The notes under the pieces are model-generated. The model was not told the origin of the DNA. It saw only the letters and a program-made list of their open reading frames with translations, and did no database searches. The translations under genes and the position numbers were made by a program. From contig OZ252219.1 in assembly GCA_965249105.1 (NCBI GenBank), forward strand, positions 4,823,108 through 4,887,107: 64,000 nucleotides of DNA. The letters run 5' to 3'. Numbering within the stretch: position 1 is the stretch's first letter; every line of letters starts with the position of its first letter. The DNA comes from Vicinamibacterales bacterium (lineage in GTDB: Bacteria > Acidobacteriota > Vicinamibacteria > Vicinamibacterales > UBA8438). Positions 3,397 through 54,127 of the stretch are shown one piece after another.

Positions 3397-3501
3397 ATCA
3401 GGGTGCCGCGACTCCCGCGTCGGCCCAGCCGTAGCTCAACTCCTTCGGCCCGGCCCGCCCAGCCGTAGCGCGCCCTGTGTTGAGCTTCGGCGCGCGAAGG
3501 C

Positions 3502-7215: not shown

Positions 7216-7223
7216 CGGCGACC

Positions 7224-8201
7224 CTACTCGAATATCAGCCCGAGCGTGTCGGTGAAGTCGAGGTACGCGAACCCACCCATCTCACCGTTCGGTCCGCCGT
7301 TCGTCCACCTTGCGCCCTTCTCCTGCCCGATGCGCAACCAGGTCTCGCGGTCGATCTCACCGCGGCCGACGGAAATGTGCTGAATCGCATTCCCCTTCTG
7401 CTTGTCGAGTGTGTCGGTCCAGGGATTGGGCCCTCCCACTGGCTCGATCAGCTCGAGCCCGATATTCTGCAGACGGAGCGTGGCCGCTCTGACCTTCGAG
7501 TTCACGTCCCAGAGGCCGGGCGGAAAGGGAAACGGCACGATCTGCGGCGGAAAGAGGATGGGCTCGACCGGGGCAAGACCGAGGATGTCGGTGAACCCGT
7601 CGATAGCGGCCTCAACGTCTCGGACGGCAAGCCCGACGTGCCTGACCGGGAGGCCACCAAAGAGACCGGTTTGACGAGCCATCGTGGCCTGAGGATCGGG
7701 CCTACGGTCGTATGGCTGGAGCTCGATCGTCAGCCCGAGTCGCTCCCTGAAGTCGACGTAGGCGAACAGCCCGTCCTGACCCGCGGAAAGGGTGCCCCCC
7801 TTCGCGATCATCGCATCGCGAACCTCTTCCAGGTCGGCGTCGACGGCGAAGCCGATCTGATGCGCGCTGGTCCCGAACTCCTCGAGGTGCTGACGGATTG
7901 GCCCCGATGTGCCCACCGGCTCGAGCACTTCGATGTGAAAGCCCGGCATACCGACCTCCGAGCGCTTCGCCGGCTCGCGCGATCCGTCCGGCAGCGGGAT
8001 CTGCACTAGGGTCACTTCCGGCACTGGGATGCCGAACGCGTCGGCATAACTACGGAGTGCGGCATCGATGTCGGGCACCACGACCCCGACGTGAGTGGCC
8101 GCCGGCAGGGCCCGAGGACTCTGCACGCTGACGACCGGGGTGAGGGCCCAGAAACCGAGGACCAGGGCCAGACTGCTGGCTAGTACGGCAACGCGTCGCA
8201 T
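7224..8201 (-). CDS. secreted tandem VOC (glyoxalase/methylmalonyl-CoA epimerase-like) protein
   Basis: Signal peptide; two repeats of HVGxxVxD...ELIEP...HI. Confidence 0.8.
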   Translation of the reverse strand: MRRVAVLASSLALVLGFWALTPVVSVQSPRALPAATHVGVVVPDIDAALRSYADAFGIPVPEVTLVQIPLPDGSREPAKRSEVGMPGFHIEVLEPVGTSGPIRQHLEEFGTSAHQIGFAVDADLEEVRDAMIAKGGTLSAGQDGLFAYVDFRERLGLTIELQPYDRRPDPQATMARQTGLFGGLPVRHVGLAVRDVEAAIDGFTDILGLAPVEPILFPPQIVPFPFPPGLWDVNSKVRAATLRLQNIGLELIEPVGGPNPWTDTLDKQKGNAIQHISVGRGEIDRETWLRIGQEKGARWTNGGPNGEMGGFAYLDFTDTLGLIFE

Positions 8202-8216
8202 CGTCCCCTCACCACA

Positions 8217-9551: not shown

Positions 9552-9571
9552 GGCTCGCTCCTTTCGGGACC

Positions 9572-13055: not shown

Positions 13056-14435
13056 CTAGAGCTCGGCGAGCCCGTCCGGGTGACCAAACTCCTTGAGCTG
13101 ACCGGTACTGTCGCCGAGCTGCTCTGCCGGTACCCCGGCCTTGCCGAGCAATGTGATGAGCAGGTTGGCCTCAGGCACGTAGTCGTCGATCGGATACGCG
13201 AGGTGCCGGCCGCCCTTGATCCGGCCACCGCCGCCACCGATCACGATGTTCGGCAGGTCGATGATCGCATGCTGGTTAGGATTGCCCAACCCGCCGCCGA
13301 ACAACAGCACGATGTTGTCGAGCAGCGACCCCCCATCACCGTCGGGTGTCGCCTGCAGTTTCTCGAGGTAGTAGGACACCAGTTGGACGTGATACGCGTC
13401 GATCTTCGCTACGTCGTCGATCTTCTGTGGGTTGTTCCCATGGTGGGAGCTTGCGTGGTGCTGGCCCACCACGCCGATGTCAGGGTAGGTCCGTGGACTC
13501 AGTTCCCTCGCCATCTGGAACGTGATGACCCTCGTGACGTCGGCTTGATATGCCGCGACCTGTAAATCGAACATCAGCTTGACGTGCTCGTCGAACGTCT
13601 GGGGAATATCCGCCGGACGAGGCGGCAGCTCCAACGTTGGATCATCGGTGTGGGCTTCCGCCCGCTGGATACGCGCCTCGATGTCTCGGACGGATTCGAG
13701 ATACTGAGTCAGTACTCGACGGTCTCCGCTGCCTAGTTGCGTGCGCAGTTCCGAGATCCGATCCGTGACCGCGTCCAGAATGCTGCTACTAGTCTCGAGG
13801 TGACGACGCTGTTCCTCAGGGGTTGCGCCGTCCCCGAACAACCGCTGGAATACGACGCGGGGATGAACCTCCATCGGCAGTGGCGTCGTCGGGTCTTTCC
13901 ACGACACGGTGTTCTGATAGATACAGCTGTACCCCGCGTCGCAGTTCCCTACCATCTGCTCGTTCTGCTCGGTGGCCAACTCGAGCGATGGCAGGACCGT
14001 CTGCTGCCCCAGCACGTCGGCGGCGATTTGGTCGGCGCTGACACCCGCGCGCACGTCGGCGCCCTCGGTGAATTTTGCGTGGGTGCCGGTGATCCATGCT
14101 GCGCTCGCTCTGGAGTGGGGGCCCGGCGGTGATCCCATGGCCTCAGCCTGCAGGTTGGCGAGGCCGCTCACCACGACCAGCTTGTTCCGAAACGGCTCCA
14201 GCGGCTTCAACGATGGCGTGAGATCGAACTGCTCGCCGACGCTCCCCGGCGTCCAGTACTCTCGAATGAAACCGTTCGGCGTGTAGATGAACCCCAACCG
14301 GCGAATGGGAGCCGCTGCCGACTTCGCGACAGCCGTGAACGCCGGCACCATCGCGTCGAGGAGCGGCAGCGTCAGCGAGACTCCCACGCCGCGAAGAAAA
14401 GTCCGACGCGGTAGCGCTCGTCGTGTGACTATCAT
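13056..14435 (-). CDS. DUF1552 family protein (second copy)
   Basis: RRTFLRGVG, SLELATE, GNCDAGYSC. Confidence 0.9.
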   Translation of the reverse strand: MIVTRRALPRRTFLRGVGVSLTLPLLDAMVPAFTAVAKSAAAPIRRLGFIYTPNGFIREYWTPGSVGEQFDLTPSLKPLEPFRNKLVVVSGLANLQAEAMGSPPGPHSRASAAWITGTHAKFTEGADVRAGVSADQIAADVLGQQTVLPSLELATEQNEQMVGNCDAGYSCIYQNTVSWKDPTTPLPMEVHPRVVFQRLFGDGATPEEQRRHLETSSSILDAVTDRISELRTQLGSGDRRVLTQYLESVRDIEARIQRAEAHTDDPTLELPPRPADIPQTFDEHVKLMFDLQVAAYQADVTRVITFQMARELSPRTYPDIGVVGQHHASSHHGNNPQKIDDVAKIDAYHVQLVSYYLEKLQATPDGDGGSLLDNIVLLFGGGLGNPNQHAIIDLPNIVIGGGGGRIKGGRHLAYPIDDYVPEANLLITLLGKAGVPAEQLGDSTGQLKEFGHPDGLAEL

Positions 14436-14455
14436 GGCTTCACCTATCGCGTCCG

Positions 14456-16873
14456 TCACCGTCGCGCGACGTCGGCGACTTGAGCCGAATTCTCCAGCGG
14501 GCCCACGGTGCGCATCTGAAATGGCACGCTTTTCACGATACCGAGAATGAGGGACGAGAAGGAGTTATGGTGCTGCGCGGCCGCGGTCGTGATCCCGCGA
14601 ACGGCCGGCATGTCGTAGTACTCCAGGCCCCGGCCAAGCGCGTAGATCATCATCTTCTCGGTCAAGGTGGCGACGAAGACATCCGATTTCGCGAGCAGCG
14701 CGGCGCGCAAGCCCGCGACACCATCGAAGGACGCCCCGTCCGGCATCTGTCCGGTCGCGTCAACCGGAAGCCCGGCGTCCTTGGTTCGCCATTCCCCCAG
14801 GGGACTGAAATTCTCGAGCGCGAACCCCAACGGGTCCATCACCCGGTGACACGAGGCGCACACCGGGTTCCTGCGATGCTGCTCCATCCGTTGGCGCAGC
14901 GTCCCCTTGAGCTCCGTTGCCTCGAGTGGGGGGACGTCCGCCGGAGGGTTGGGAGGCGGCGCGCCCAGCAGATTCTCGAGCACCCATTTCCCTCGTGTCA
15001 CCGGCGAGGTTCGGTTCGCCTGCGACGTCACCGTCAGAATGCTTGCATGGCCGAGCAGGCCCCGACGATTCTCGTCGGCGACCTGAATCCGTCGGAAATG
15101 ACTGCCGTAGATACTTGGGACCCCATAGTGCCTGGCGAGTCGCTCGTTGACGAAGGTGTAGTCGGCGTCCAAGAAATCCACGACACTCCGGTCCTCACGC
15201 ATGATCGTTTCGAATAACAGTTCCGTCTCGCGTCGCATCGCCTGTCGCAGGTTGTCGTCGAAGTTGGGAAACATATGCGCGTTGGGGTCGATACCCTCGA
15301 CGTTCCGCAACCGCAACCACTGCCCGCCGAAGTTCTTCACGAGTGCTCCCGATCGCTCGTCGGCCAGCATCCGGCGGGTCTGAGCCTCCAGGACGTCGGG
15401 ATCGCTGAGCTCGCCGCTCACCGCCAGTTCGAGCAGCTCGTCATCTGGAACGCTGCTCCACAGAAAGAACGACAGCCGCGAAGCGAGGGTAAGGTTGTCG
15501 ATTCGATATGTATCCCCTGGCGAGAGGTTGGGCGGGTCCGCGACGATCCGGAATAGGAAGTCAGGGCTCGAAATAATGCGCTCCAGGCCGATGCGGATGC
15601 CGGTCTCGAAATCGCCGTCCGCCCGGCCGTGCTGGTAGAAATCCAGCAAGTCGGTAACGTCCGCATTCGTCAAGGGACGACGATACGCCCGCCGCGCCAA
15701 GGTCGCCAAGATTTGCCGCGCACACGACTCCTCAGCTGCATCCCCTGCGGGACGACAGGCAAAGATCCGCTGGCGGCTCGGCGTGTCACCCGGTCCCGTG
15801 GTGTCAAATGGACCGGTGAACGACACTTGGCCGACATACGGGCCAGCGTAGCCTCCCATTCGGGTCAGTCGAAACGACGAGATCCCCGGTGGTCTGAGGA
15901 ACGGCGCGAGGTGATCCTCGAGCTGGCCGGAGGTTGTCTGGATGAAGGTCACAGCCACGTCGTGAAGGCCAGCGTTGATCGGTATACGGATTTCCCAGTC
16001 TGTATTCGCCTGGATATCCGCACCGGGGATCGTGTGCTTGATCGGCTTCTGGTCCATCTTCTCGAGGAAGATCTGCTCGCCGTCGATAGACACCTCGATG
16101 AAGTTCGGCTCTGCCTCCGACTCACCAACCCCGGTGAACGCCTGAAAGCGGATCACGTAGTCGGCGTCAACCGGAAAATAGCGCCGAATAAGGGTGCCCC
16201 CACGAGTGCCGAAGGGAAGCCCCTCGAGCCGATCATCCTGCGACAGATCGGGCGGGACGATGTACGTGTCCCCGTCGGGGGGCAGAGTCACGTCGCCAAC
16301 GGCCACGCGGCTGATTGTGCGCGCGGCAGTCACATACTGATCGAGATGAGTCGGCGTCATCCCGAGGATGCCAGCGATGTTGTCGAAACCGTAGCTCGCG
16401 TCGTCGCGTGGCAGAATCGTGGTGTAGTTCAGCCCCTCGAGCGCCAAGAGGTCTCGGATCGCGTTCGCATACTCGGCACGATTGAGACGGTGCAGCGCCT
16501 CTGTGCGTCCGGGATTCGGATGGGACGCCGCCGCTTGGTCCAGCTTCCGCTCCAACCAGGACGTAAGCGCGTCGTAGACAGCTGGTTCGGGCCGCGGGTT
16601 CCTCGGGGGCGGCATCGCCCCAGCCCGCAGTTTGCGGACGGCTTTCTCGAGCAGTTCGGAGTGCACGTCCATCCGTTCGAGGTCGACACTTTCTAGAGAA
16701 ACGCCAGCGGTCCTGAGCCGATCGCTGTGACACCGGACGCAGTACTGGTCGAGAACGGCTCGGGCGTCAGAGGCAGCGACGATGCTGGCCGGTGACTGCT
16801 CGGCGGTCGCAGAATCGCTTGACGCCACCAGCACCAACGCGGTCGCGAGCACCCAGGGCGCCGTCGTCCTCAC
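14456..16873 (-). CDS. DUF1592-family cytochrome-c protein (second copy)
   Basis: CVRCH, HRLNRAEY, LASRLSFFLWSS, RTSPVTRGKW, CASCH. Confidence 0.9.
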   Translation of the reverse strand: MRTTAPWVLATALVLVASSDSATAEQSPASIVAASDARAVLDQYCVRCHSDRLRTAGVSLESVDLERMDVHSELLEKAVRKLRAGAMPPPRNPRPEPAVYDALTSWLERKLDQAAASHPNPGRTEALHRLNRAEYANAIRDLLALEGLNYTTILPRDDASYGFDNIAGILGMTPTHLDQYVTAARTISRVAVGDVTLPPDGDTYIVPPDLSQDDRLEGLPFGTRGGTLIRRYFPVDADYVIRFQAFTGVGESEAEPNFIEVSIDGEQIFLEKMDQKPIKHTIPGADIQANTDWEIRIPINAGLHDVAVTFIQTTSGQLEDHLAPFLRPPGISSFRLTRMGGYAGPYVGQVSFTGPFDTTGPGDTPSRQRIFACRPAGDAAEESCARQILATLARRAYRRPLTNADVTDLLDFYQHGRADGDFETGIRIGLERIISSPDFLFRIVADPPNLSPGDTYRIDNLTLASRLSFFLWSSVPDDELLELAVSGELSDPDVLEAQTRRMLADERSGALVKNFGGQWLRLRNVEGIDPNAHMFPNFDDNLRQAMRRETELLFETIMREDRSVVDFLDADYTFVNERLARHYGVPSIYGSHFRRIQVADENRRGLLGHASILTVTSQANRTSPVTRGKWVLENLLGAPPPNPPADVPPLEATELKGTLRQRMEQHRRNPVCASCHRVMDPLGFALENFSPLGEWRTKDAGLPVDATGQMPDGASFDGVAGLRAALLAKSDVFVATLTEKMMIYALGRGLEYYDMPAVRGITTAAAQHHNSFSSLILGIVKSVPFQMRTVGPLENSAQVADVARR

Positions 16874-38243: not shown

Positions 38244-38378
38244 CGGGCACTTCATCCGGCCCGTCGTCGGCTCCGTAACGCGGCCCAGGCAAGGCTTCCA
38301 AGGAACACAACCTTCACAACGGCGCCTTCCTGTATCGGTGAGGAACAAGGTTTGTTACTCGTGTGCATCGTCACAAAA

Positions 38379-38964
38379 GTTTTAATCCGGGATAATCCGG
38401 GATAACCCGGGATGACCCCGGGATGCGACTCGCGCGGGCGCAACGACTGACGGGGAGGGCGACAGAATTGGGCCGTGCCGAGGCCCGATCCGCCGTCCGT
38501 GGGAGGGGTGTCCCGGGAGGCTCTCACGTGCGCCCCACCCGGACCACGGAAACCGGCTCGCGAGACGATCGCCCGCATACCGGCGCCACCTCGCTCCAGA
38601 CGTGTCTCGTCTTCTCGGCGCCGCGCCCGCGACCGTCGAAATCGCCCGGCATCCACAGAAAAAACTTGGGGCCGCCCCCGAGCGATCCCGGAGTGCGAGC
38701 ATCAGCGGGACTGGGTGGCGGTGGGGGCAGTCTCGAGCGAACCCGTCTCGCACGTCGATAAGCGAATAAAAGACGAATATTGGATGGGTCCCTACTATGT
38801 CCCGCTTCAAACTCCTTGACCGGCTCAGGGGGAGTGTCTTGGCGGGCAGCGTCGGTACCTCCGCATCGGAGGATAAGTTGTTGTCCTCGCGCGAGTCGCA
38901 TCCCGGGGTCATCCCGAATTATCCCGGATTAAAACTTGGGTCATGCCTAGCCGGCCGTCACCGG
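38379..38964. repeat. complete L-core-R unit B (core 38716) bounded by inverted repeats
   Basis: GTTTTAATCCGGGAT...CCGGATTAAAAC ends; 29-bp inner IR 38408-38436/38888-38916. Confidence 0.95.
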
Positions 38965-39934: not shown

Positions 39935-40757
39935 GTCGGGTAGACCAGGGTCGTTGCTGACCCTGGCCCCCCACAGATCCGGACGTGCGGGTTCTGCCGC
40001 ATCCGGCTCCTCGACAGATGGCTTCGCTACGCGCCGTCGCGTACCCGTTGGTCCAGGAAGCCAGGCGATGGCCACCGCCATCCCCAAGGCTTGTCTGGCC
40101 AGTTCGGCTATCCGTTGTCGTGACGTGGAGACGGGACCCAACCTCGGTGTGTTGGCCGTCTTTCCCTCCACCGGTGCCACCTGCCGGTGCCCCCTTCCCT
40201 CCACGGGGTCTCGTGGGCTCAATTCCCCCGTTTCGGCGGTACTATGAGACACTCCGACTCCTCGCCGTCCATCCCCCCGCGCTTCGTTGCCTTCGCCCGG
40301 CGGTACCATCCGAGCACCTGCGGCTTCGCTCCGTCGGACGCCAGGTGCTGCGTCCACGGCCTCGGGCTTGGTGAGCCGGTGCCCGCCCCCCGGCGGTCTT
40401 TAAGATGGAGACGACGAGGCCTCCCGGGTTCCCGGGAAACCCACCCGCACGCATGCCACGCGCTCCGACCCCGGCGAGGTCGCCGCCTCCACGGCCTCTG
40501 AGATGCGGCGAGATAGCCTTCCGTCCAACGCACGACGTCGGCCCTCACAAACAATGCATTTCGGGGCTCAATCACGCGGCCTACGGGCTCCCTGTGAACG
40601 CTTCGCGCCCTGGGTCACCCCAGGCCCACGCATCACTCGGTTCCGGCTGGCGGCCGACCTTGGCCGGATGGGATTGGATACCCACAGGGTTTCGAACAAG
40701 GTTTCAAAGATCACATCACGGCATCTTGTCCCCCTTGACCGGGCTTTCCCGGCACAC
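39935..40757 (-). mobile_element. group II intron with internally deleted IEP (823 nt)
   Basis: 5' GTGTGCCGGG; domain V GAGCCGGATGCGG...CGCACGTCCGGATCTGTGGGG; domain VI ending CTACCCGAC; only IEP N- and C-terminal stubs remain. Confidence 0.9.
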
Positions 40758-42345: not shown

Positions 42346-42519
42346 GCTCACAGTCAAGTTGACGAGCGGAGCGCATGATTGTGGCTGGATGGCGGACTCC
42401 CGTCATCCTTAGTAGTAGGCACACGTCACCTCATCCCACACGCGGAACGAACGCGTTCTCAGCGAACGGTGGTGAACCGCTCGGAGCAGGTGGCGCCCAA
42501 CCCGAAAGAGGTTCTGAAC

Positions 42520-42880
42520 AAGGCCGTCGGGATGATCTACCTCAAGCTGCGGCAGGCGGGAGCACTGGTCAACCACAAGCGGGTGGAGCGCCTGTATACC
42601 GAGGCCAGGCTGCAGGTACGTCGGCGGCGACGCAAGAAGATCCCGGTGGCGGACCGCCAGCCCCTGATACGACCCCAGGCGCCGAACGAGGTCTGGTCTG
42701 CCGACTTCGTCTTCGACCGCACGGCCGATGGACGGGTGGTGAAGTGCCTGACGGTCGTCGATGACGCGACCACCGAAGCGGTGGCCATTGTGCCTGCCCG
42801 CACGCTCGGTGGGCTGCCGGTCACCCGCGTGCTTGATCGACTCGCGTTCGAACGCGGCCTGCCGCGTGTCCTGCGCACCG
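42520..42880 (+). pseudogene. IS3-family OrfB fragment
   Basis: VNHKRVERLY, PNEVWSADFVFD, LTVVDDAT; truncated before the second catalytic Asp. Confidence 0.9.
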
Positions 42881-43106
42881 CGTGCTATGAACAAGTTGTC
42901 AAGGCTCTCGGCGCCGTTGGGTCGTCCAATCGAGGGACAGATACGGGCTCAGGCTCGGTGGAGCCGGCCCATCGTGCGTCATCCGGACTCATACCCGAGG
43001 AGCGGAGGGTGCCAGGCGGAAGTACGTCGAGCTGTCTTCGACGCGAAGAGCTCAGGACAACGGTGGGCATGGCCTCCTCTCCGGTTGGAGCCGGAGCCTC
43101 AGGTTT

Positions 43107-43510
43107 CTACGCGGCGATCGACTCGTCCCTCCACACGTGGTCAGCATCGAACGCCGTGCGGTTCTTGACGACGGCGAACGCGTAGTGCAGCAGTTTGGTC
43201 ATGCAGGCCCCGATCGCCTGCATCGGAGGCAAGGGACGCGTGACTCGCTGCGTGAGGCGCTCGTAGTGGGCTTTGAGGCGCGGGTTATGGCGGAGGGACG
43301 ACAGCGTGGCCATGTAGACCACGGCGCGCAGCTGGGCCCGCCCGCGCTTGGTGATCGGCGTCCGTCCAGCGTGCTGGCCGCTTTCCCGTCTCGAGGGCTG
43401 CAGGCCGGCCAGCTTCACCAACTGCCGGCCATGCTGGTATCTGTCGAACGGGCCAATCTCAGCGATCAGCCCGGCGATGGTGATCCACCCGATCCCCGGC
43501 AGCGTGGCGA
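43107..43510 (-). pseudogene. IS110-family transposase C-terminal fragment
   Basis: LPGIGWITIAGLIAEIG, AGLxPSRRESG, ITKRGR; 5' part cut off at the L-end repeat. Confidence 0.9.
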
Positions 43511-43617
43511 CTGGAGCGCGCACAGTGAGGTCGATCAAAAGTTTTAATCCGGGAGGCACTTGCAAAACCCTGCGCGTAGAGAAGTTTTTTGGCGGCTTGC
43601 GCACGGTGCGGGCCACA

Positions 43618-43965
43618 TCACACAGGCGTGAGCTGACGAAGCAGGCGCTCAGTCATCCGCAGCGACAACGTCTCCATTTCCACAACGATTCGGTCTAGCT
43701 GTCGGCCGTTCTCGATCCAGTCCCGGACACGCTCGGCTTGCTGCTCGGTGAGACGGACGGTGACGGTCTTGCCGCGGACCTTGCGGGTCCACTGATAGTA
43801 CGGCCCGTGTAGCTGCGGGGGCGTCGCTTGGCAGCGGCAGTTCGGCTTGCCGCACGGCATGAAACGTTGCACGAGGCTGCCACGTCGAAGCAATCCCACC
43901 TCAGCGACGGTGCGCTTGAGCGCGTCGTAGCGCTGCGTGTCGGTTGTTGGGTCACGGGTGGGCAT
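43618..43965 (-). CDS. DUF6788-like passenger protein
   Basis: RGSL...CGKPNCRC...HGPYYQWT...GKT. Confidence 0.8.
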   Translation of the reverse strand: MPTRDPTTDTQRYDALKRTVAEVGLLRRGSLVQRFMPCGKPNCRCQATPPQLHGPYYQWTRKVRGKTVTVRLTEQQAERVRDWIENGRQLDRIVVEMETLSLRMTERLLRQLTPV

Positions 43966-44028
43966 GTCGTGCCATTCGGTCTAGCAGTTGTTATACTGCT
44001 AGACCTGGCCCCAGGAGTCAAGAAGAAA

Positions 44029-45168
44029 ATGAGCCGTCTCCGAGAGTGCTTCGCACCACACTGGCTGTCCATTCAGACCGCACTCTTTCCATGGCTGGAG
44101 GAAGAGCTGGGACCACTCACGGAGAAACAGCAGCAGTTCGTGCAGACCTTGGAGGTCATCCGGGTCGAGGACCACATTCCCCGACGCGTCCGCATGCCCG
44201 GCCGACCTCGCAAGGATCGCGCGGCCGTCGCCCGCGCGTTTGTCGCCAAGGCCGTCTACGACCTGCCGACGACACGCAGGCTGCTCGATCGGCTGGCCAC
44301 CGATCGACCCTTGCGCCGGATCTGCGGCTGGGAGACTAGGCGCCAGGTCCCGAGCGAATCCTTGTTCTCACACGCCTTCGACGAGTTTGCGACCACGCAG
44401 TTGCCTCTGCGCGTGCACGAGACGGTCATCCAGAAGACGCATCACGACCGATTGGTCGGTCATCTCTCGCGAGACTCCACCGCGATTGCGGCACGCGAGA
44501 AGCCCGCCACGAAGGACAAGCCGCCCGCGCCCTCGCAGCGGAAGCGGGGACGACCGAAGAAGGGAGAGGAGCGCCCTCACGAGCCCACGCGTCTGCAGCG
44601 GCAGGGCACCATGACCAAGCCGGAGATGCTCGCTGATCTCCCGACGGCCTGCGATGTCGGGACGAAAAAGAACAGCAAGGGCTACAAGGAAACCTGGGTC
44701 GGCTACAAGCTGCATATCGATGTGGCCGATGGCCAGATCCCCATCAGCTGCCTACTGACCACTGCCTCCCTTCATGACAGCCAGGCCGCTATTCCGCTCG
44801 CAACCCTGTCCGCCGAGCGGAGCACCAATCTGTACGACGTGATGGACGCCGCCTACGATGCGCAGGAGATTCGGGCACACAGCCGTTCGCTGAACCACGT
44901 TCCGCTGATCGACATCAACACGCGCCGCAACACGGCGCTGAAGGAAGAACGCCAAGCGGAAGCTCGGCGCCGACAGGTGCTTGGCTTCCAGCTTCCGGAG
45001 GACGTTCGCTACAACGAACGCACGGCCGTTGAGCGGGTCAATGGCCGCCTCAAGGACGAATTCGGCGGTCGCCATGTCCGGGTCCGCGGCCCGGCGAAGG
45101 TGATGTGCCACTGCATGTTCGGCGTGCTCGCACTCACCGCTGACCAACTCATGCGCCTCGTCACGTAG
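44029..45168 (+). CDS. DDE transposase (YREK motif)
   Basis: RDSTAI, GYKLH, DAAYD, YNERTAVERVNGRLK; start refined to MSRLRE. Confidence 0.95.
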   Translation: MSRLRECFAPHWLSIQTALFPWLEEELGPLTEKQQQFVQTLEVIRVEDHIPRRVRMPGRPRKDRAAVARAFVAKAVYDLPTTRRLLDRLATDRPLRRICGWETRRQVPSESLFSHAFDEFATTQLPLRVHETVIQKTHHDRLVGHLSRDSTAIAAREKPATKDKPPAPSQRKRGRPKKGEERPHEPTRLQRQGTMTKPEMLADLPTACDVGTKKNSKGYKETWVGYKLHIDVADGQIPISCLLTTASLHDSQAAIPLATLSAERSTNLYDVMDAAYDAQEIRAHSRSLNHVPLIDINTRRNTALKEERQAEARRRQVLGFQLPEDVRYNERTAVERVNGRLKDEFGGRHVRVRGPAKVMCHCMFGVLALTADQLMRLVT

Positions 45169-45990
45169 CCATCGGTGACGTGATGACCTCGATCCACCCA
45201 GCTGCCTACGCGCAGAAGGCGGCAGCTCTTGCCAGACCCTCGCCCAATGCCCGGGCGGGCCTGCGTCTCCTCATGAATCGGTGCCTCGATCCCGGTGCCC
45301 TGGGCCCGAGTGACCAGTTTGCACCCAAACCCTGACGCTTGTTCCACTGTCGGCCAGGAGTTTTGCAAGTGCCTCCCGGGATAATCCGGGATCATCCGGG
45401 ATGACCCCGGGATGCGACTCGCGCGGGCGCAACGATTGACGGGGAGGGCGACAGAATTGGGCCGTGCCGAGGCCCGATCCGCCGTCCGTGTGAGGGGTGT
45501 CCCGGGAGGCTCTCACGTGCGCCCCACCCGGACCACGGAAACCGGCCCGCGAGACGATCGCCCGCATACCGGCGCCACCTCGCTCCAGACGTGTCTCGTC
45601 TTCTCGGCGCCGCGCCCGCGACCGCTGAAATCGCCTGAATCCAACGAGGAAATCGGGGGCAACCCTCGAGCGATCCCGAAGTGCGAGCATCGGCAGGACT
45701 GGGTGGCGGAGGGGGCAGTCTCGCGCGAACCCGTCTCGCACGTCGCCAAGCGAATAAAAGACGAATATTTGATGGGTCCCTACTATGTCCCGCTTCAAAC
45801 TCCTTGACCGGCTCAGGGGGAGTGTCTTGGCGGGCAGCGTCGGTACCTCCGCATCGGAGGAGAAGTTGTTGTCCTCGCGCGAGTCGCATCCCGGGGTCAT
45901 CCCGGATTATCCCGGCTTATCCCGGGAGGCACTTGCAAAACCCTGCGCGTAGAGAAGTTTTTTGGCGGCTTGCGCACGGTGCGGGCCACA

Positions 45991-46338
45991 TCACACAGGC
46001 GTGAGCTGACGAAGCAGGCGCTCAGTCATCCGCAGCGACAACGTCTCCATTTCCACAACGATTCGGTCTAGCTGTCGGCCGTTCTCGATCCAGTCCCGGA
46101 CACGCTCGGCTTGCTGCTCGGTGAGACGGACGGTGACGGTCTTGCCGCGGACCTTGCGGGTCCACTGATAGTACGGCCCGTGTAGCTGCGGGGGCGTCGC
46201 TTGGCAGCGGCAGTTCGGCTTGCCGCACGGCATGAAACGTTGCACGAGGCTGCCACGTCGAAGCAATCCCACCTCAGCGACGGTGCGCTTGAGCGCGTCG
46301 TAGCGCTGCGTGTCGGTTGTTGGGTCACGGGTGGGCAT
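45991..46338 (-). CDS. DUF6788-like passenger protein
   Basis: Identical to 43618-43965. Confidence 0.8.
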   Translation of the reverse strand: MPTRDPTTDTQRYDALKRTVAEVGLLRRGSLVQRFMPCGKPNCRCQATPPQLHGPYYQWTRKVRGKTVTVRLTEQQAERVRDWIENGRQLDRIVVEMETLSLRMTERLLRQLTPV

Positions 46339-46401
46339 GTCGTGCCATTCGGTCTAGCAGTTGTTATACTGCTAGACCTGGCCCCAGGAGTCAAGAAGAA
46401 A

Positions 46402-47541
46402 ATGAGCCGTCTCCGAGAGTGCTTCGCACCACACTGGCTGTCCATTCAGACCGCACTCTTTCCATGGCTGGAGGAAGAGCTGGGACCACTCACGGAGAAA
46501 CAGCAGCAGTTCGTGCAGACCTTGGAGGTCATCCGGGTCGAGGACCACATTCCCCGACGCGTCCGCATGCCCGGCCGACCTCGCAAGGATCGCGCGGCCG
46601 TCGCCCGCGCGTTTGTCGCCAAGGCCGTCTACGACCTGCCGACGACACGCAGGCTGCTCGATCGGCTGGCCACCGATCGACCCTTGCGCCGGATCTGCGG
46701 CTGGGAGACTAGGCGCCAGGTCCCGAGCGAATCCTTGTTCTCACACGCCTTCGACGAGTTTGCGACCACGCAGTTGCCTCTGCGCGTGCACGAGACGGTC
46801 ATCCAGAAGACGCATCACGACCGATTGGTCGGTCATCTCTCGCGAGACTCCACCGCGATTGCGGCACGCGAGAAGCCCGCCACGAAGGACAAGCCGCCCG
46901 CGCCCTCGCAGCGGAAGCGGGGACGACCGAAGAAGGGAGAGGAGCGCCCTCACGAGCCCACGCGTCTGCAGCGGCAGGGCACCATGACCAAGCCGGAGAT
47001 GCTCGCTGATCTCCCGACGGCCTGCGATGTCGGGACGAAAAAGAACAGCAAGGGCTACAAGGAAACCTGGGTCGGCTACAAGCTGCATATCGATGTGGCC
47101 GATGGCCAGATCCCCATCAGCTGCCTACTGACCGCTGCCTCCCTTCATGACAGCCAGGCCGCTATTCCGCTCGCAACCCTGTCCGCCGAGCGGAGCACCA
47201 ATCTGTACGACGTGATGGACGCCGCCTACGATGCGCAGGAGATTCGGGCACACAGCCGTTCGCTGAACCACGTTCCGCTGATCGACATCAACACGCGCCG
47301 CAACACGGCGCTGAAGGAAGAACGCCAAGCGGAAGCTCGGCGCCGACAGGTGCTTGGCTTCCAGCTTCCGGAGGACGTTCGCTACAACGAACGCACGGCC
47401 GTTGAGCGGGTCAATGGCCGCCTCAAGGACGAATTCGGCGGTCGCCATGTCCGGGTCCGCGGCCCGGCGAAGGTGATGTGCCACTGCATGTTCGGCGTGC
47501 TCGCACTCACCGCTGACCAACTCATGCGCCTCGTCACGTAG
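46402..47541 (+). CDS. DDE transposase
   Basis: Differs from copy 1 by one residue (LLTAAS vs LLTTAS). Confidence 0.95.
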   Translation: MSRLRECFAPHWLSIQTALFPWLEEELGPLTEKQQQFVQTLEVIRVEDHIPRRVRMPGRPRKDRAAVARAFVAKAVYDLPTTRRLLDRLATDRPLRRICGWETRRQVPSESLFSHAFDEFATTQLPLRVHETVIQKTHHDRLVGHLSRDSTAIAAREKPATKDKPPAPSQRKRGRPKKGEERPHEPTRLQRQGTMTKPEMLADLPTACDVGTKKNSKGYKETWVGYKLHIDVADGQIPISCLLTAASLHDSQAAIPLATLSAERSTNLYDVMDAAYDAQEIRAHSRSLNHVPLIDINTRRNTALKEERQAEARRRQVLGFQLPEDVRYNERTAVERVNGRLKDEFGGRHVRVRGPAKVMCHCMFGVLALTADQLMRLVT

Positions 47542-47791
47542 CCATCGGTGACGTGATGACCTCGATCCACCCAGCTGCCTACGCGCAGAAGGCGGCAGCT
47601 CTTGCCAGACCCTCGCCCAATGCCCGGGCGGGCCTGCGTCTCCTCATGAATCGGTGCCTCGATCCCGGTGCCCTGGGCCCGAGTGACCAGTTTGCACCCA
47701 AACCCTGACGCTTGTTCCACTGTCGGCCAGGAGTTTTGCAAGTGCCTCCCGGATTAAAACTTTTGATCGAGCTCAGCGGATTATGTTCCGC

Positions 47792-47851
47792 GAGCAAGGC
47801 ATCGAAAAATATCTTGGCTCCGGCATGATCCGGGGCATCGGCCCGGTCTAC
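47792..47851 (+). pseudogene. RecD2-like helicase internal fragment
   Basis: My translation: EQGIEKYLGSGMIRGIGPVY. Confidence 0.7.
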
Positions 47852-47883
47852 CCGAGCTGCCCTATCGCCAATGGGTCATCAGT
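47851..47883 (+). pseudogene. IS91-type transposase motif fragment
   Basis: My translation: PELPYRQWVIS; only 11 codons. Confidence 0.45.
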
Positions 47884-47888
47884 AGGCG

Positions 47889-48011
47889 AAGTACACAATG
47901 ACCAGTAACACGGGGGAAATCCTGGTCATGCTCCTCGCTCCGCTCATCGGGATGCCGCTGCCGCCGCTCCCTTTGCAGATCTTGTGGATCAACCTCGTGA
48001 CCGATGGGTTG
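47889..48011 (+). pseudogene. cation-transporting P-type ATPase TM5-TM6 fragment
   Basis: KYTMTSNTGEILVMLLAPLIGMPLPPLPLQILWINLVTDGL. Confidence 0.85.
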
Positions 48012-48064
48012 GGGTCGAGAGCTCCGGGCGTGCGGTTCGGCCACGCGTGGACGGCGGGGCCGGC

Positions 48065-48841
48065 TCAGAAGTCGACGGTGATGCCGATCTGCACCCCGAA
48101 CAACGTGGCCAGTGACCGCGTCGGCTCGAACGTTACCCCGGTCTCATCGCGCTGGAGCTCTCCCCGCGTCAAATAGTCGACCTCGCCGCCGGTGAGATAC
48201 CGGAGCCCGATGTCGAGACCCAGGCGAGCCTCGCTCCCCGACACGAGCCCGATCGTGACGCCGCCTCCCGCACCGAAGCTCGGCGCGAAGTCGCCCAGAT
48301 GCGTGGTCGCCGCACCGCCACCTTCATTGCCCAGGTCGACAGACGTTCGCGTATACACGTGACTGAACCCGAGGAGCCCCTCGGCGTACGGCCGTACCCG
48401 GCCGGCGGGAGGCTGGACCCGCACGAGCGCATGGGTCCGAATGAAGTTGTTGGTGGTCCCGACGTCGCTAAACACCTCGGGGACGGCCGGAAACAGCGCG
48501 ATGCGGCGGGTCTCCGTGCCGTAGCGCAGGTAGTCGATGGTCGCTCCCACGGAGACGGGGGTCTGGCCTACGCGGGCCGTGAAGTCGACGGCCGCCCCCG
48601 GGGTCGCGCCGACCTTCTTCCCGAACGGCCCGATCGGGACCCCGACCAGGAACTTTGGGCTGAACTGGAAGCGCAGCAGTTCCGGGACCTCGACCACGGA
48701 TGATTCCGGCCGAGGAAGCTGCCCGGGCGGCGGTGCCGGTGGGCTGGCGGACGCCGTCTGCGCAGCGGCAGTTGATGTGCCTGCGAGCCACAATCCACAC
48801 GCGACGGCGATGGCTCCGCGACTGACAGCTCGTCTCTGCAT
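48065..48841 (-). CDS. outer-membrane beta-barrel protein
   Basis: Signal peptide, amphipathic strands, VRPYAEG, terminal Phe (GITVDF); start refined to MQRRA. Confidence 0.75.
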   Translation of the reverse strand: MQRRAVSRGAIAVACGLWLAGTSTAAAQTASASPPAPPPGQLPRPESSVVEVPELLRFQFSPKFLVGVPIGPFGKKVGATPGAAVDFTARVGQTPVSVGATIDYLRYGTETRRIALFPAVPEVFSDVGTTNNFIRTHALVRVQPPAGRVRPYAEGLLGFSHVYTRTSVDLGNEGGGAATTHLGDFAPSFGAGGGVTIGLVSGSEARLGLDIGLRYLTGGEVDYLTRGELQRDETGVTFEPTRSLATLFGVQIGITVDF

Positions 48842-49091
48842 CGTTGCCTGCCTCCGTAGTTCGAATGGACGCATTATCTGATCATGAGAAGCGGCAGTCT
48901 CCCACGATATAGAGGAGCAAACCTCGTGCCGGTCTCGTGAGAGCATCCAAGTCGTTTGTGGAGAGTGGGTTGCGCTCCGGAGGCACGCATTGACGGCACC
49001 GTGGCGTCGACCTGATCCGTGGACAATCCACCACAGCTAGTGAACTTTTTTGGAGACGCGCTACCCATGCTGCCGGGCGTTTCCGTAGCAC

Positions 49092-49270
49092 TTGACCGAC
49101 GTGGACGCGAAGCTGACCGCGCTGCAGGCGATGGACCTCGCGGCCCTGCGCCGCGAATGGTGCCGCTGTCATCGGGCTCCGCCGCCGCGGCTCAGCCGCG
49201 ACCTGCTGCTCCGGGACCTCGCCTATACGCTCCAAGAAGACGCGTATGGCGGCGTGAGCAAGGCGATCCG
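49092..49270 (+). pseudogene. DUF2924-family fragment
   Basis: LAALRREW...PPPRLSRDLLLRDLAYTLQEDAYGG; C-terminal half missing. Confidence 0.75.
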
Positions 49271-49539
49271 CACGGCTCCGGACCCTGGCCAAGGCCGTCG
49301 CCGAGACCGGCCGCGTCGCCCCCGAGAATCGACTCGGCCAGCGCATCAATCAGTTGGGTGGTTGCGCGTGTGGCCAGGAGCCGTTGCGGTACAGCGTGAT
49401 GGCGACGTCGACGTTTCGGCGTAGCGCGGCCTGAACCGCAGGCCAGTTCTTCTCGGAGCGAACCAGTGTCTTCCACGAGTACAAGTGCTTCCGCTTGTGA
49501 AAGTCGGAGTGGGTGCTCGGAACCACTGGTCGATCAAGA

Positions 49540-50144
49540 GTTTGATCCGAGATATTCCGGAACTATCCGAAACACGTGAGACGTGCGATGCTCGTGGGCA
49601 CAACACCTGACGGGGAGGGCGACAGGATTGGGCCGCGCCGATCCCGATCCGACGTCCGCCTTCTGCGGGAGGGGTGTCCGAGAAAGCTCTCACGCAGCGC
49701 CCAACCCGGACCACGGAACCCGGCTCGCGAGACGATCACGCGGACACCAGCCGCCACCTCGCCCCAGGCGCGACTCACCTCCCCGGCGCCGTGCCCGTGC
49801 CCGCTGAAATCGCCTGAATCCAACGAGGAAATCGAGGGCAACCCTCGAGCGATCCCGAAGTGCGAGCATCGGCAGGACTGGGTGGCGGAGGGGGCAGTCT
49901 CGCGCGAACCCGTCTCGCACGTCGCCAAGCGAATAAAAGACGAATATTTGATGGGTCCCTACTATGTCCCGCTTCACACTCCTTGACCGGCTCAGGGGGA
50001 GTGTCTTGGCGGGCAGCGTCGGTACCTCCGCATCGGAGGATAAGTTGTTGTCCTCGCGCGAGTCGCATCCCGGGGTCATCCCGGATGATCCCGGCTTATC
50101 CCGGATTAAAACTTTTGATCGAGCTCAGCGGATTATGTTCCGCG
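49540..50144. repeat. L-core-R unit D (core 49883), left terminal repeat degenerate
   Basis: R arm near-identical to unit C including the 32-bp extension; L arm similar to 53858-54037. Confidence 0.9.
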
Positions 50145-50618
50145 CTTTGATGACATCGAGAAAGTGATCCGATCATGAATGCGGATTGGCCGACTGCCAG
50201 ATGCATACTCTGTGGCTCCGGAGAAGACATCACAACGGAACATATAATTCCCGACTGCCTCGCCGGAAAACTCGTAGCGAATTTCCTGTGCAAAGACTGC
50301 AATTCAAGGCTTGGCCATGGTGCCGAAAGCGCTGTCAGGAACGACCCAAAGGTTCGGCTATTAATTGAACGCCTAGTCGGTGAACAACCTCACCTCGCCA
50401 ATAAATTACAGAAGCGGCTACCGTACATAGGCCGCAGTGAGCAAGGCGAAATCCCTGGATACATGCGAGACGGAAGGTTCGTTCCGAAGGAACAACCGCT
50501 GGACGATGGATCGTTTATCTTTCCGGAGGACCTATCTCTATATCATTCATCATGAGGCACTTGCAAAACCCTGCGCGTAGAGAAGTTTTTTGGCGGCTTG
50601 CGCACGGTGCGGGCCACA

Positions 50619-50966
50619 TCACACAGGCGTGAGCTGACGAAGCAGGCGCTCAGTCATCCGCAGCGACAACGTCTCCATTTCCACAACGATTCGGTCTAGC
50701 TGTCGGCCGTTCTCGATCCAGTCCCGGACACGCTCGGCTTGCTGCTCGGTGAGACGGACGGTGACGGTCTTGCCGCGGACCTTGCGGGTCCACTGATAGT
50801 ACGGCCCGTGTAGCTGCGGGGGCGTCGCTTGGCAGCGGCAGTTCGGCTTGCCGCACGGCATGAAACGTTGCACGAGGCTGCCACGTCGAAGCAATCCCAC
50901 CTCAGCGACGGTGCGCTTGAGCGCGTCGTAGCGCTGCGTGTCGGTTGTTGGGTCACGGGTGGGCAT
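50619..50966 (-). CDS. DUF6788-like passenger protein
   Basis: Identical to the other copies. Confidence 0.8.
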   Translation of the reverse strand: MPTRDPTTDTQRYDALKRTVAEVGLLRRGSLVQRFMPCGKPNCRCQATPPQLHGPYYQWTRKVRGKTVTVRLTEQQAERVRDWIENGRQLDRIVVEMETLSLRMTERLLRQLTPV

Positions 50967-51029
50967 GTCGTGCCATTCGGTCTAGCAGTTGTTATACTGC
51001 TAGACCTGGCCCCAGGAGTCAAGAAGAAA

Positions 51030-52169
51030 ATGAGCCGTCTCCGAGAGTGCTTCGCACCACACTGGCTGTCCATTCAGACCGCACTCTTTCCATGGCTGGA
51101 GGAAGAGCTGGGACCACTCACGGAGAAACAGCAGCAGTTCGTGCAGACCTTGGAGGTCATCCGGGTCGAGGACCACATTCCCCGACGCGTCCGCATGCCC
51201 GGCCGACCTCGCAAGGATCGCGCGGCCGTCGCCCGCGCGTTTGTCGCCAAGGCCGTCTACGACCTGCCGACGACACGCAGGCTGCTCGATCGGCTGGCCA
51301 CCGATCGACCCTTGCGCCGGATCTGCGGCTGGGAGACTAGGCGCCAGGTCCCGAGCGAATCCTTGTTCTCACACGCCTTCGACGAGTTTGCGACCACGCA
51401 GTTGCCTCTGCGCGTGCACGAGACGGTCATCCAGAAGACGCATCACGACCGATTGGTCGGTCATCTCTCGCGAGACTCCACCGCGATTGCGGCACGCGAG
51501 AAGCCCGCCACGAAGGACAAGCCGCCCGCGCCCTCGCAGCGGAAGCGGGGACGACCGAAGAAGGGAGAGGAGCGCCCTCACGAGCCCACGCGTCTGCAGC
51601 GGCAGGGCACCATGACCAAGCCGGAGATGCTCGCTGATCTCCCGACGGCCTGCGATGTCGGGACGAAAAAGAACAGCAAGGGCTACAAGGAAACCTGGGT
51701 CGGCTACAAGCTGCATATCGATGTGGCCGATGGCCAGATCCCCATCAGCTGCCTACTGACCGCTGCCTCCCTTCATGACAGCCAGGCCGCTATTCCGCTC
51801 GCAACCCTGTCCGCCGAGCGGAGCACCAATCTGTACGACGTGATGGACGCCGCCTACGATGCGCAGGAGATTCGGGCACACAGCCGTTCGCTGAACCACG
51901 TTCCGCTGATCGACATCAACACGCGCCGCAACACGGCGCTGAAGGAAGAACGCCAAGCGGAAGCTCGGCGCCGACAGGTGCTTGGCTTCCAGCTTCCGGA
52001 GGACGTTCGCTACAACGAACGCACGGCCGTTGAGCGGGTCAATGGCCGCCTCAAGGACGAATTCGGCGGTCGCCATGTCCGGGTCCGCGGCCCGGCGAAG
52101 GTGATGTGCCACTGCATGTTCGGCGTGCTCGCACTCACCGCTGACCAACTCATGCGCCTCGTCACGTAG
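51030..52169 (+). CDS. DDE transposase
   Basis: Same protein as copy 2. Confidence 0.95.
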   Translation: MSRLRECFAPHWLSIQTALFPWLEEELGPLTEKQQQFVQTLEVIRVEDHIPRRVRMPGRPRKDRAAVARAFVAKAVYDLPTTRRLLDRLATDRPLRRICGWETRRQVPSESLFSHAFDEFATTQLPLRVHETVIQKTHHDRLVGHLSRDSTAIAAREKPATKDKPPAPSQRKRGRPKKGEERPHEPTRLQRQGTMTKPEMLADLPTACDVGTKKNSKGYKETWVGYKLHIDVADGQIPISCLLTAASLHDSQAAIPLATLSAERSTNLYDVMDAAYDAQEIRAHSRSLNHVPLIDINTRRNTALKEERQAEARRRQVLGFQLPEDVRYNERTAVERVNGRLKDEFGGRHVRVRGPAKVMCHCMFGVLALTADQLMRLVT

Positions 52170-52991
52170 CCATCGGTGACGTGATGACCTCGATCCACCC
52201 AGCTGCCTACGCGCAGAAGGCGGCAGCTCTTGCCAGACCCTCGCCCAATGCCCGGGCGGGCCTGCGTCTCCTCATGAATCGGTGCCTCGATCCCGGTGCC
52301 CTGGGCCCGAGTGACCAGTTTGCACCCAAACCCTGACGCTTGTTCCACTGTCGGCCAGGAGTTTTGCAAGTGCCTCTCATGTTAAAAAAATGTCCAAGCG
52401 GGCGGGCAGAGAACTCTTCGGGGTTACGCCTGATCAACTCAGATGCCTACCTTCCGGCGGCTCAGTTGAAGCGGCATCCGGGCTTTTTATTACAAACTGG
52501 ACTCTAGATTCAATTGAACCTGACCTCAGCGGACCAGAGATTGACCCGATAGTTCCGGCGACAATTGCGTTCGAGTTTCTCGCATTGCATTGCGGTATTA
52601 AAATCTATGAAAACCCGCCGCAGTTTGCGCTAATTCGGCGTCAGCTCATTGATGGCAAGTTGTCTGGAGATGAGATTCGTGTGCAGCGCCTGGAGGCGCA
52701 GAATAGGCAGCTCTTCCACGGACTCGTATTTGAAGGCAACAGCCCAGGAGCGCGAGTCCAGATACGGCTTTTTGGCTCTCTGGCTTTTCGCGTGGAATTT
52801 AACCGTTGGTCCATCAGCGGCACTCGTTGTGGTTACACTCACGACTTAGTGTCTGAAGATGACGGCTTTTGGGTCGATGCATAGATTGGTGGTCGAGGAG
52901 GAGGCGATAATTTCGTTCCATTACCGTGACACTCAACACGCTAGATGTTAAAAACACCTAGATTTATTATATGTTTTTAGATCAACGGTCT

Positions 52992-53105
52992 CTCCTCAAG
53001 GGGGACGTGTTCACGCCTGACGTGATCGAGAACTGGCTCGCCTACAAACGGGAGAACGAAGTCGACGCCATTCGCCTGCGGCCGCATCCGTGGGAATTCG
53101 CGCTG
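52992..53105 (+). pseudogene. glnA: glutamine synthetase type I 3'-terminal fragment
   Basis: My translation: [38 protein letters not shown]. Confidence 0.85.
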
Positions 53106-53359
53106 GGATGACCCCGGGATGCGACTCGCGCGGGCGCAACGACTGACGGGGAGGGCGACAGAATTGGGCCGTGCCGAGGCCCGATCCGCCGTCCGTGGGA
53201 GGGGTGTCCCGGGAGGCTCTCACGTGCGCCCCACCCGGACCACGGAACCCGGCTCGCGAGACGATCGCCCGCATACCGGCGCCACCTCGCTCCAGACGTG
53301 TCTCGTCTTCTCGGCGCCGCGCCCGCGACCGTCGAAATCGCCCGGCATCCACAGAAAAA
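53105..53359. repeat. partial L arm E (no outer iterons, no core)
   Basis: Near-identical to the L arm of unit B. Confidence 0.9.
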
Positions 53360-53395
53360 CGCCAGCTCGCCCACAGATTTTTCTGACGAACCAAA

Positions 53396-54043
53396 GTTTT
53401 AATCCGGGATCAGCCGGGATCAGCCGGGATGACCCCGGGATGCGACTCTCGCGGTCGCAACGACGTACGGGGACGCGGCGGATCCAGCGTGGCGCGTTGC
53501 GCTCGACGACGAGGCGTTCGTCGTCGATGCCCGGGTCGGTGTACGGTCGGTCGTGCAGCCCGGCGTGGATCACGCGCACCAGCTTGTGGGCGGTGGCCAG
53601 GATCCATCCCGGTAGCCGACGCTCTGTGGGCGCAACGACTGACGCCGAGTCCAGCGCCGGGACGCCACGTTGCACCGGCCGGTGCAGGTCCAGCGCGCCG
53701 CGCGTCATGGTCAGTTTCTGTGACGTGGGCTCGGCCGCCGCGCCGCGAGAAGTTCTTGCAGCGGCATATTCCGGGACTTGCCGGGCTCCATCCCGGAATC
53801 CGACGCTCCGCGGACCCGACGACTGACAGGGGTCAGTCGTACATGGCTCTCTCAAAACCCCGGACCACCGAACCTGGCTCGCGAGACGATCACGCGGACA
53901 CCGGCCGCCACCTCGCCCCCGGCGCGACTCACCTCCCCGGCGCCGCGCCCGTGACCGCTGAAATCGCCTGAATCCAACGAGGAAATCGGGGGGCACCCCT
54001 CGAGCGATCCCGAAGTGCGAGCATCGGCAGGACTGGGTGGCGG
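53396..54043. repeat. L arm F: terminal repeat 53396-53470, unrelated insert, L body 53858-54037 abutting the tRNA CCA end
   Basis: GTTTTAATCCGGGAT(CAGCCGGGAT)2GACCCCGGG; ...GCATCGGCAGGACTGGG|TGGCGG. Confidence 0.9.
53474..53610 (-). pseudogene. IS110-family transposase extreme C-terminal fragment
   Basis: ATAHKLVRVIHAGLHDRPYTDPGIDDERLVVERNAPRWIRR. Confidence 0.6.
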
Positions 54044-54127
54044 AGGGACTGGGATTCGAACCCAGGGAACGCTTTCACGTTCAACGGTTTTCAAGACCGC
54101 CGCCTTCAACCGCTCGGCCATCCCTCC
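54038..54127 (-). tRNA. tRNA-Ser(UGA)
   Basis: GGAGGGA/TCCCTCC acceptor, CTTGAAA loop, long variable arm, GGTTCGAATCC, discriminator G, encoded CCA. Confidence 0.98.

Follow-up and report, generated by a model that had tools for sequence, protein, structure and literature searches.

A short mosaic of RecD2, P-type ATPase and other fragments beside a MITE-like element in a Vicinamibacterales bacterium is probably a product of pseudogene erosion

Introduction

ISCR elements mobilise adjacent DNA, CRISPR spacer acquisition lines up short foreign sequences next to a defined end, all on one strand, and integron cassette arrays stack unrelated sequences in one orientation. In the plasticity zones of Helicobacter pylori, remnant mosaics have arisen from multiple insertions and from spontaneous and transposon-mediated deletions, as described by Kersulyte et al. 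(2009, PMC2731543). We compare these systems with a 220-bp mosaic in a DNA stretch of 64,000 nucleotides (hereafter the window) from a Vicinamibacterales-type acidobacterium. The original prediction, made from the letters of the window, was that three short fragments of unrelated genes are butted together at the right end of a mobile element, and that they arose either by deletions between neighbouring genes or by serial capture of short DNA pieces at the element end. Comparison with sibling contigs favours the former: with a probability of about 0.85, this short stretch is what is left of three older, longer pseudogene fragments that were trimmed by separate deletions and insertions.

The mosaic and its immediate surroundings

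The mosaic lies within a mobile-element zone at ~38.3-54.0 kb of the window, beside a tRNA-Ser gene. The features that matter for the argument are listed below by window position and strand.

45926-47748, plus strand: second copy of the IS5-like element IS-A, inserted at a CCGG, now duplicated, within the right terminal repeat of element B
47749-47790, plus strand: right terminus of B (CCGGATTAAAACTT) with a 28-nt outer extension, TTGATCGAGCTCAGCGGATTATGTTCCG; the 'R end' and 'R extension' of the original prediction
47791-47795, no strand assigned: CGAGC, between the B end and the RecD2 relic
47796-47850, plus strand: RecD2 helicase relic of 18 codons from the first helix-hairpin-helix stretch, (Q)GIEKYLGSGMIRGIGPVY, assigned by identity to sibling contigs
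47846-47850, no strand assigned: deletion junction GTCTA; its counterpart on sibling contig L002 is GTTTA, with four of five bases matching, two of them contiguous (TA)
47851-47888, no strand assigned: middle piece, reading PELPYRQWVIS in one plus-strand frame; a segment of separate origin according to the contig comparison
47889-48011, plus strand: relic of a type II P-type ATPase that begins shortly before TM5 and reaches TM6 (KYTMTSNTGEI…QILWINLVTDGL), assigned by profile matches
48012-48064, no strand assigned: 53-bp spacer from the ATPase relic to the stop of the convergent gene; 100% identical in L001-L005, L007 and L008, 92% in L006
48065-48841, minus strand: OMP-like gene of 258 aa (48065-48946 as a 293-aa reading) with a signal peptide and C-terminal …ITVDF; on every contig the stable right neighbour of the mosaic
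49092-49424, plus strand: DUF2924 gene (Pfam DUF2924, E 1.7e-13), right part of a 1.7-kb block that recurs on sibling contigs
49584-50142, plus strand: left-truncated copy of B; the 28-nt extension recurs at its right end, beyond which lies an HNH gene split by the third IS-A copy

A three-frame reading of 47740-48070 resolves 47796-48011 into three distinct plus-strand segments that follow one another without gaps and measure 55 bp (RecD2), 38 bp (middle piece) and 123 bp (ATPase). One frame reads …REQGIEKYLGSGMIRGIGPVY and ends at 47851, another reads LPELPYRQWVISRRSTQ*, and the third reads AKYTMTSNTGEILVMLLAPLIGMPLPPLPLQILWINLVTDGL and ends at 48011, after which 53 bp lead to the stop codon of the convergent gene. 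In the same reading, the three same-strand, abutting pieces lie no more than a few bases from the positions given in the original prediction. Homology at the junctions amounts to 0-2 bp where the join is not blunt. No separating repeats lie between the pieces, with only chance-level repeats of 8-18 nt in 47740-48070, and a self-comparison of the window found no self-matches of the mosaic region. The five bases CGAGC are absent from the uninterrupted RecD2 relic of L004 (…TCGGTGG/AAGGCATCG) and do not follow all copies of the 28-nt extension. Two sequences found after that extension, GGCATCGAAAAA and GACATCGAGAAA, look alike at differing offsets, and the likeness was judged to be due to chance.

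Sibling contigs and recurrence of the junctions

The sibling contigs all belong to a single long-read metagenome assembly (ERZ26167216), with coverages from 3x to 144x. L001 is a closed Vicinamibacterales chromosome of 6.64 Mb at 144x, also deposited as OZ252227.1; several others have only 3-11x (L002-L005 fall in that range), at which single-base differences may be errors; the structural differences relied on here far exceed errors of that size. A 1.7-kb block at 47846-49561, which comprises the middle piece, the ATPase relic, the spacer, the OMP-like gene and the DUF2924 gene, is found again on L001-L005 and L007, with 99.2-99.9% identity; only L001, L004 and L005 have it in full. L006 carries the part from the ATPase to the OMP-like gene at 92% identity and has no middle piece; on L007 the block starts at 47937, within the ATPase piece, beside a PadR-MacB operon. 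A 92-aa ORF runs across the ATPase piece on L001-L005, with variant forms on L006 and L007. The left context of the block differs from contig to contig, and the 10-kb flanks of the sibling contigs share only the block and mobile elements; the contigs may be strain variants of one locus, or they may carry copies of a segment that travels.

An assembly chimera, with junctions made by mis-joined reads, would be conceivable in a region so full of near-identical repeats, where assemblers err. Its probability is vanishingly small: the junctions lie in unique sequence outside the repeats and recur on seven other contigs with different surroundings and coverages, including the closed chromosome at 144x. 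They are not assembly artefacts, because they are found on contigs of 3x to 144x coverage.

The OMP-like gene is called at 258 aa on L001, L002, L004, L005 and L007, at 136 aa on L003 and at 210 aa on L006, and no Pfam or NCBIfam family was found for it. Compared with L006 10125-10901 it is 92% identical, indel-free and intact in frame, and both of its flanks have indels. The substitutions between the two copies fall evenly on the three codon positions (19/16/21), and they and the codon changes (34 nonsynonymous, 16 synonymous) suggest that the gene may be under relaxed or diversifying selection.

The RecD2 and ATPase relics

The RecD2 piece is a short part of a longer relic that sibling contigs retain. 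Its DNA at 47796-47850 is 100% identical to L002 6924-6978 and to L004 9899-9953, where the relic is about 125-150 codons long. On L004 the match to the window begins at 47796 and the RecD2 frame extends upstream to a start codon (143-aa ORF), and on L002 the frame runs past the breakpoint of the window (…GPVY/ATRMVRLFGTDVFDIIE; 180-aa ORF). These longer ORFs match Pfam OB_YrrC (PF23139) with E 1e-23 and positions 1-114 of NCBIfam TIGR01448 (helicase_RecD2) with E 2e-31, which confirms the first piece as belonging to the N-terminal region of a RecD2 (YrrC) SF1B helicase. A near full-length RecD2 of the same type occurs on the IS-dense contig L035 (10001-12291), where it is split by a frameshift into 303 + 460 aa (AAA_30, UvrD_C_2), and is only 86% identical in protein sequence. 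A word-indexed protein search with the 180-aa relic listed only proteins of 134-315 aa and seems biased towards similar length. The same metagenome contains many RecD2 N-terminal fragments (proteins P0005-P0124) with differing breakpoints and fusions: P0019 breaks after …YLGSGL and P0006 after …RMVRLF, and in P0062 the fragment is fused to a PF18735 domain after …APSSV. This type of RecD2 seems to travel with mobile DNA and to suffer frequent breakage.

The third piece matches positions 1-21 of Pfam Cation_ATPase_C (PF00689) with E 2.4e-4. L006 has 218 bp of ATPase, that is, 95 bp more on the 5' side, and with this 5' continuation the piece matches positions 580-649 of TIGR01116 (SERCA-type) with E 8e-23. 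The L006 relic has an internal 13-nt deletion, and its right junction, TDGL/GSRAPG, is the same as in the window. A scan of JGI metagenomes for KYTMTSNTGEI yielded 26 ordinary ATPase genes in ORFs of up to 978 aa, 25 of which share 30-38 of the 41 relic residues, and all of which read …DNIRKFI before and …PGLAL after the retained stretch. The DNA alignment starts precisely at 47889 and, for 22 of these 26 genes, stops at 48007-48011; for three of the others it continues to 48028-48032, and for one it breaks off at 47932. Profiles and homologues thereby confirm the piece as the stretch of a type II P-type ATPase that leads from the P domain end through TM5-TM6.

Donor searches returned relics. 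Among the ATPase genes found, none exceeds 78% DNA identity to the ATPase relic. A scan of 185,579 species-representative genomes for the pattern of a 14-residue ATPase peptide gave a single match, the relic itself in OZ252227.1. A pattern scan of that closed chromosome detected no intact ATPase encoding the peptide, so that no recent donor of the relic was found. A donor tblastn in the window and ~130 kb of sibling loci gave mosaic copies only, and a word-indexed protein search with the 44-aa ATPase piece gave four short proteins, all fragments and none a donor.

The middle piece

On L001 and L003 the middle piece belongs to a longer segment, of at least 132 bp, and forms its right end. Its leftward extension is common to L001 and L002 for 37 bp and to L001 and L003 for 89 bp; on L003 an IS200/IS605 element of 610 bp, which has the usual end hairpins, has inserted into the 132-bp segment. 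Reading it as a continuation of the DUF1552 fragment that is adjacent on L002 was tried and rejected. A minus-strand …VLIYADDAR in the 132-bp version recalls the YADD of reverse transcriptases, has no Pfam support and was treated as chance.

The original prediction saw an IS91-type motif here. The peptide LPELPYRQWVIS presumably resembles an LPxVPxRQWVLS stretch that follows the zinc-binding region of IS91-family transposases. In one rival explanation, rolling-circle, one-ended transposition of IS91/ISCR type brought the ATPase fragment beside a transposase gene that would survive only as the middle piece; this resemblance and the mobilisation of neighbouring DNA by ISCR elements speak for it. 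Twelve residues make a family call impossible, however, and neither the 30-residue nor the 48-residue reading, with all frames tried, has a Pfam or NCBIfam match, IS91 included, at E<=10. The 132-bp version encodes no recognisable protein in any frame, and its left part does not continue as a transposase. The window and ~130 kb of sibling loci contain no IS91-type gene. A tblastn comparison with 72,556 plasmids, insensitive for 12 residues, gave no IS91 match, and the 10-residue pattern PELPYRQWVI is absent from IMG/VR and JGI contigs. Transfer by this rolling-circle route is very unlikely. Among the original family calls, those of RecD2 and P-type ATPase hold with Pfam and NCBIfam matches, whereas that of IS91 finds support from neither profiles nor tblastn.

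Elements B and IS-A and the surrounding island

Element B is a MITE-like element of ~0.55 kb with no convincing gene, and each of its ~70-bp terminal inverted repeats has three CCGGGAT(N4) subrepeats. The window holds complete copies at 38375-38937 and 43526-47790 (the latter interrupted by two IS-A copies), the left-truncated copy listed above, and fragments at 3499-3740, 53105-53473 and 53859-54047. Conserved outer sequences lie beyond …GGATTAAAACTT and are of three kinds: GGGTCATGCCTAGC…, the 28-nt TTGATCGACCTCACTGTGCGCGCTCCAG, and the 28-nt extension found beside the mosaic. This last sequence (47763-47790) also follows B ends at 50115-50142 and at L007 13991-14018, and the flanks diverge after …GTTCCG. 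Three independent flanks thus place the end of the proposed R extension at 47790 and make it a part of B. The element is very abundant in this population. A B-like end adjoins an IS1595-type transposase gene at L001 19306-20279, which is a possible autonomous partner of B.

IS-A is ~1.82 kb long, has inverted ends GAGGCACTTGCAAAAC, and carries genes for a 446-aa DUF772 + DDE_Tnp_1 transposase and, divergently, a 115-aa DUF6788 protein (Pfam). Its three copies (43553-45375, 45926-47748 and 50554-52376) are 99.9-100% identical and are flanked by 4-bp target duplications, CCGG, CCGG and TCAT, respectively. The first two lie in the same orientation at CCGG of both terminal repeats of the B copy at 43526-47790, and IS-A may prefer the CCGG of these repeats; the third splits the HNH endonuclease gene (duplication TCAT). 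IS-A was recently active, because L005 has the same B end without it.

Other relics like those of the mosaic lie nearby. The C-terminal half of an IS110 transposase (Transposase_20, 4e-25) at 43107-43616 on the minus strand is cut by the left end of B at 43526, and it is overlapped by an IS3-type integrase fragment at 42379-43185 on the plus strand. The zone also holds one whole IS110 and, on the minus strand, group II intron domains at 39935-40011 and 40459-40677 (Rfam RF02005, 138.7 bits; RF00029, 45.5 bits). A tRNA-Ser(TGA) gene lies at 54038-54127 on the minus strand, and its 3' part is present as a perfect 59-bp direct repeat 52.8 kb apart (1196-1254 = 54037-54095). Such a repeat is the signature of a tRNA-integrated genomic island, here a putative one at ~1255-54036, within which no integrase was identified. 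The island interior contains a homogentisate pathway, DUF1552/DUF1592 pairs and ankyrin-repeat proteins together with the mobile-element zone; two full DUF1552 genes lie in the window at 8217-9575 and 13056-14459.

Order of events

The most recent inner junction can be followed across contigs. In L002 a stretch of 2,970 bp separates the RecD2 relic from the middle piece and the ATPase relic; the order and strand of the pieces are those of the window, and 37 bp lie between the 2,970-bp stretch and the part of the middle piece that the window retains. L004 equals L002 minus 6979-9948, and the 2,970 bp are also missing from L005 and from the window. Within the missing stretch lie phage genes for HK97-type capsid and S78 protease, as well as a 52-aa DUF1552 tail. 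This tail, at L002 9730-9888 on the minus strand between the capsid genes and the middle piece, is the C terminus of a DUF1552 (HXXSHH) protein and thus one more short relic at this border. Because homology is contiguous on both sides of the RecD2-middle junction, the L002 state is ancestral there to that of L004; no insertion could have re-created the RecD2 frame together with the leftward continuation of the middle piece. One locus, L002, thus holds all pieces in order, which tells against capture at the RecD2-middle junction, and its collinearity with L004, L005 and the window bears out the alternative of deletions between neighbouring sequences. Microhomology, which the original prediction proposed to look for at the junctions, is present at this one as GTCTA/GTTTA.

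By the same argument, the ATPase relic of L006, being longer, is ancestral to those of shorter length, and the middle-ATPase junction is a later truncation, because L006 keeps 95 bp more of the ATPase. The ATPase-spacer junction is common to every copy, including that of L006 at 92% identity. As far as the contig comparison tells, the middle-ATPase and ATPase-spacer junctions are older than the RecD2-middle junction. We infer the sources of these two older junctions only from the longer relics, no intact ATPase or middle-piece source being present at the locus. The two junctions might instead have formed in one step, by double-strand-break end joining with filler DNA. Blunt junctions or 0-2 bp of homology would suit such an event, the middle piece and the ATPase relic come without identified neighbours of origin, and no contig has the middle piece together with the longer ATPase relic. 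Before trimming, however, the ATPase segment measured at least 218 bp and the middle segment at least 132 bp, their short sizes being due to later loss, and nothing sets this route apart from ordinary illegitimate recombination; we regard it as quite unlikely.

The B end arrived after the inner junctions had formed. L005 is the same as the window from 47747 on and has the B end without IS-A, and in five of the seven sibling contigs B is absent from the mosaic position. The left flank of B in L005 and in the window is not the missing 5' part of RecD2, and because of this the arrival of B was not a simple insertion. This sequence of states bears directly on serial capture, in which the B/IS-A end would have gained short foreign pieces one after another, as in spacer acquisition without repeats. 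The pieces are indeed short, co-oriented and abutting, they start 5 bp from the element end, and the left border of the block is unusually variable. Yet for each piece some sibling contig carries a longer, contiguous precursor, the lengths of 55, 38 and 123 bp come with no repeats between the pieces, and the B end is the latest arrival apart from IS-A, which came later still (L005 versus the window). The B end cannot have collected the pieces, because the inner junctions exist without an adjoining B end on five contigs (L001-L004 and L007). Serial, spacer-like capture, which the original prediction had entertained, is highly improbable. Some 20 B ends with 60-90 bp of flank were listed from the window and L001-L007, only a few of which have annotated flanks: an IS110 transposase fragment, the start of an HNH gene and unrelated sequence, with no run of short pieces noticed among these few.

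Comparison of the contigs shows pseudogene erosion in four states. In the first (a), which is like L002, a RecD2 relic of ~150 codons was followed by the 2,970 bp of phage genes with the DUF1552 fragment, and then by the middle piece, the ATPase relic and the OMP-like gene. Loss of the 2,970 bp, with the join in GTCTA/GTTTA and probably by illegitimate or microhomology-mediated recombination, gave the L004 state (b). Placement of the B end with its 28-nt extension 55 bp upstream of that junction, and loss of the 5' part of RecD2, gave the L005 state (c), probably either through a transposon-associated adjacent deletion or through recombination between B copies. Insertion of IS-A at CCGG in the B terminal repeat (d) completed the window state. 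Features of a transposon-deletion mosaic are present throughout: the B terminus lies 5 bp from the RecD2 break, L002 keeps the undeleted state, and the junction is GTCTA/GTTTA. The three sources are known as relics in a mobile-element-dense zone and may or may not have been neighbouring cellular genes.

A further possibility is that the left border of the 1.7-kb block is an actively targeted recombination hotspot and not a site of passive decay. Seven different left contexts occur among block copies of 92-99.9% identity in one community, and the six different left borders within the 99%-identical block are a point against passive decay, with much turnover. Adjacent deletions driven by the B transposase, or a serine recombinase linked to DUF2924, which such a recombinase usually accompanies, could provide a mechanism. 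We consider a targeted hotspot unlikely.

Significance and comparison with known systems

The mosaic is a case of ordinary pseudogene erosion in a mobile-element-dense zone, a known kind of outcome that involves no new route of DNA capture, and its pieces have no function of their own. Its value is mainly that of a negative result, in that a look-alike of spacer capture without repeats turns out to be ordinary erosion; longer precursors and the order of events in sibling contigs are what tell capture from erosion. The locus is also a four-state structural record from an uncultured Vicinamibacterales population, with a deletion, the arrival of a MITE end and an IS insertion, and it draws attention to two elements that are uncharacterised and evidently active: B, which is MITE-like, and an IS5-like IS whose insertions lie in the terminal repeats of B.

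The likeness to CRISPR spacer acquisition, short heterologous pieces in a one-strand row near a defined end, is superficial: the mosaic was seen to have no repeats, no uniform piece length and no cas genes, its pieces come from longer local precursors, and the leader-like end came after the pieces. Integron cassette arrays likewise stack unrelated sequences in one orientation, whereas the mosaic has no attC-like inverted repeats, its pieces are gene-internal instead of whole cassettes, and no integron integrase occurs among the scanned ORFs. Capture by ISCR/IS91 elements would leave a transposase remnant abutting unrelated cargo, as the mosaic might seem to show; here no IS91-family gene or end was detected, and the sole link is the 12-residue resemblance. 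The plasticity zones of H. pylori differ in that the fragments here are only 38-123 bp long with three of them abutting, that the host is an uncultured acidobacterium, and that B and IS-A are uncharacterised. They are alike in their nested insertions (here IS-A in B, IS200/605 in the middle piece and IS-A in the HNH gene), in a break at a transposon end, in spontaneous deletion with short junction homology, in different intermediates being kept by different strains or contigs, and in a site beside a tRNA gene.
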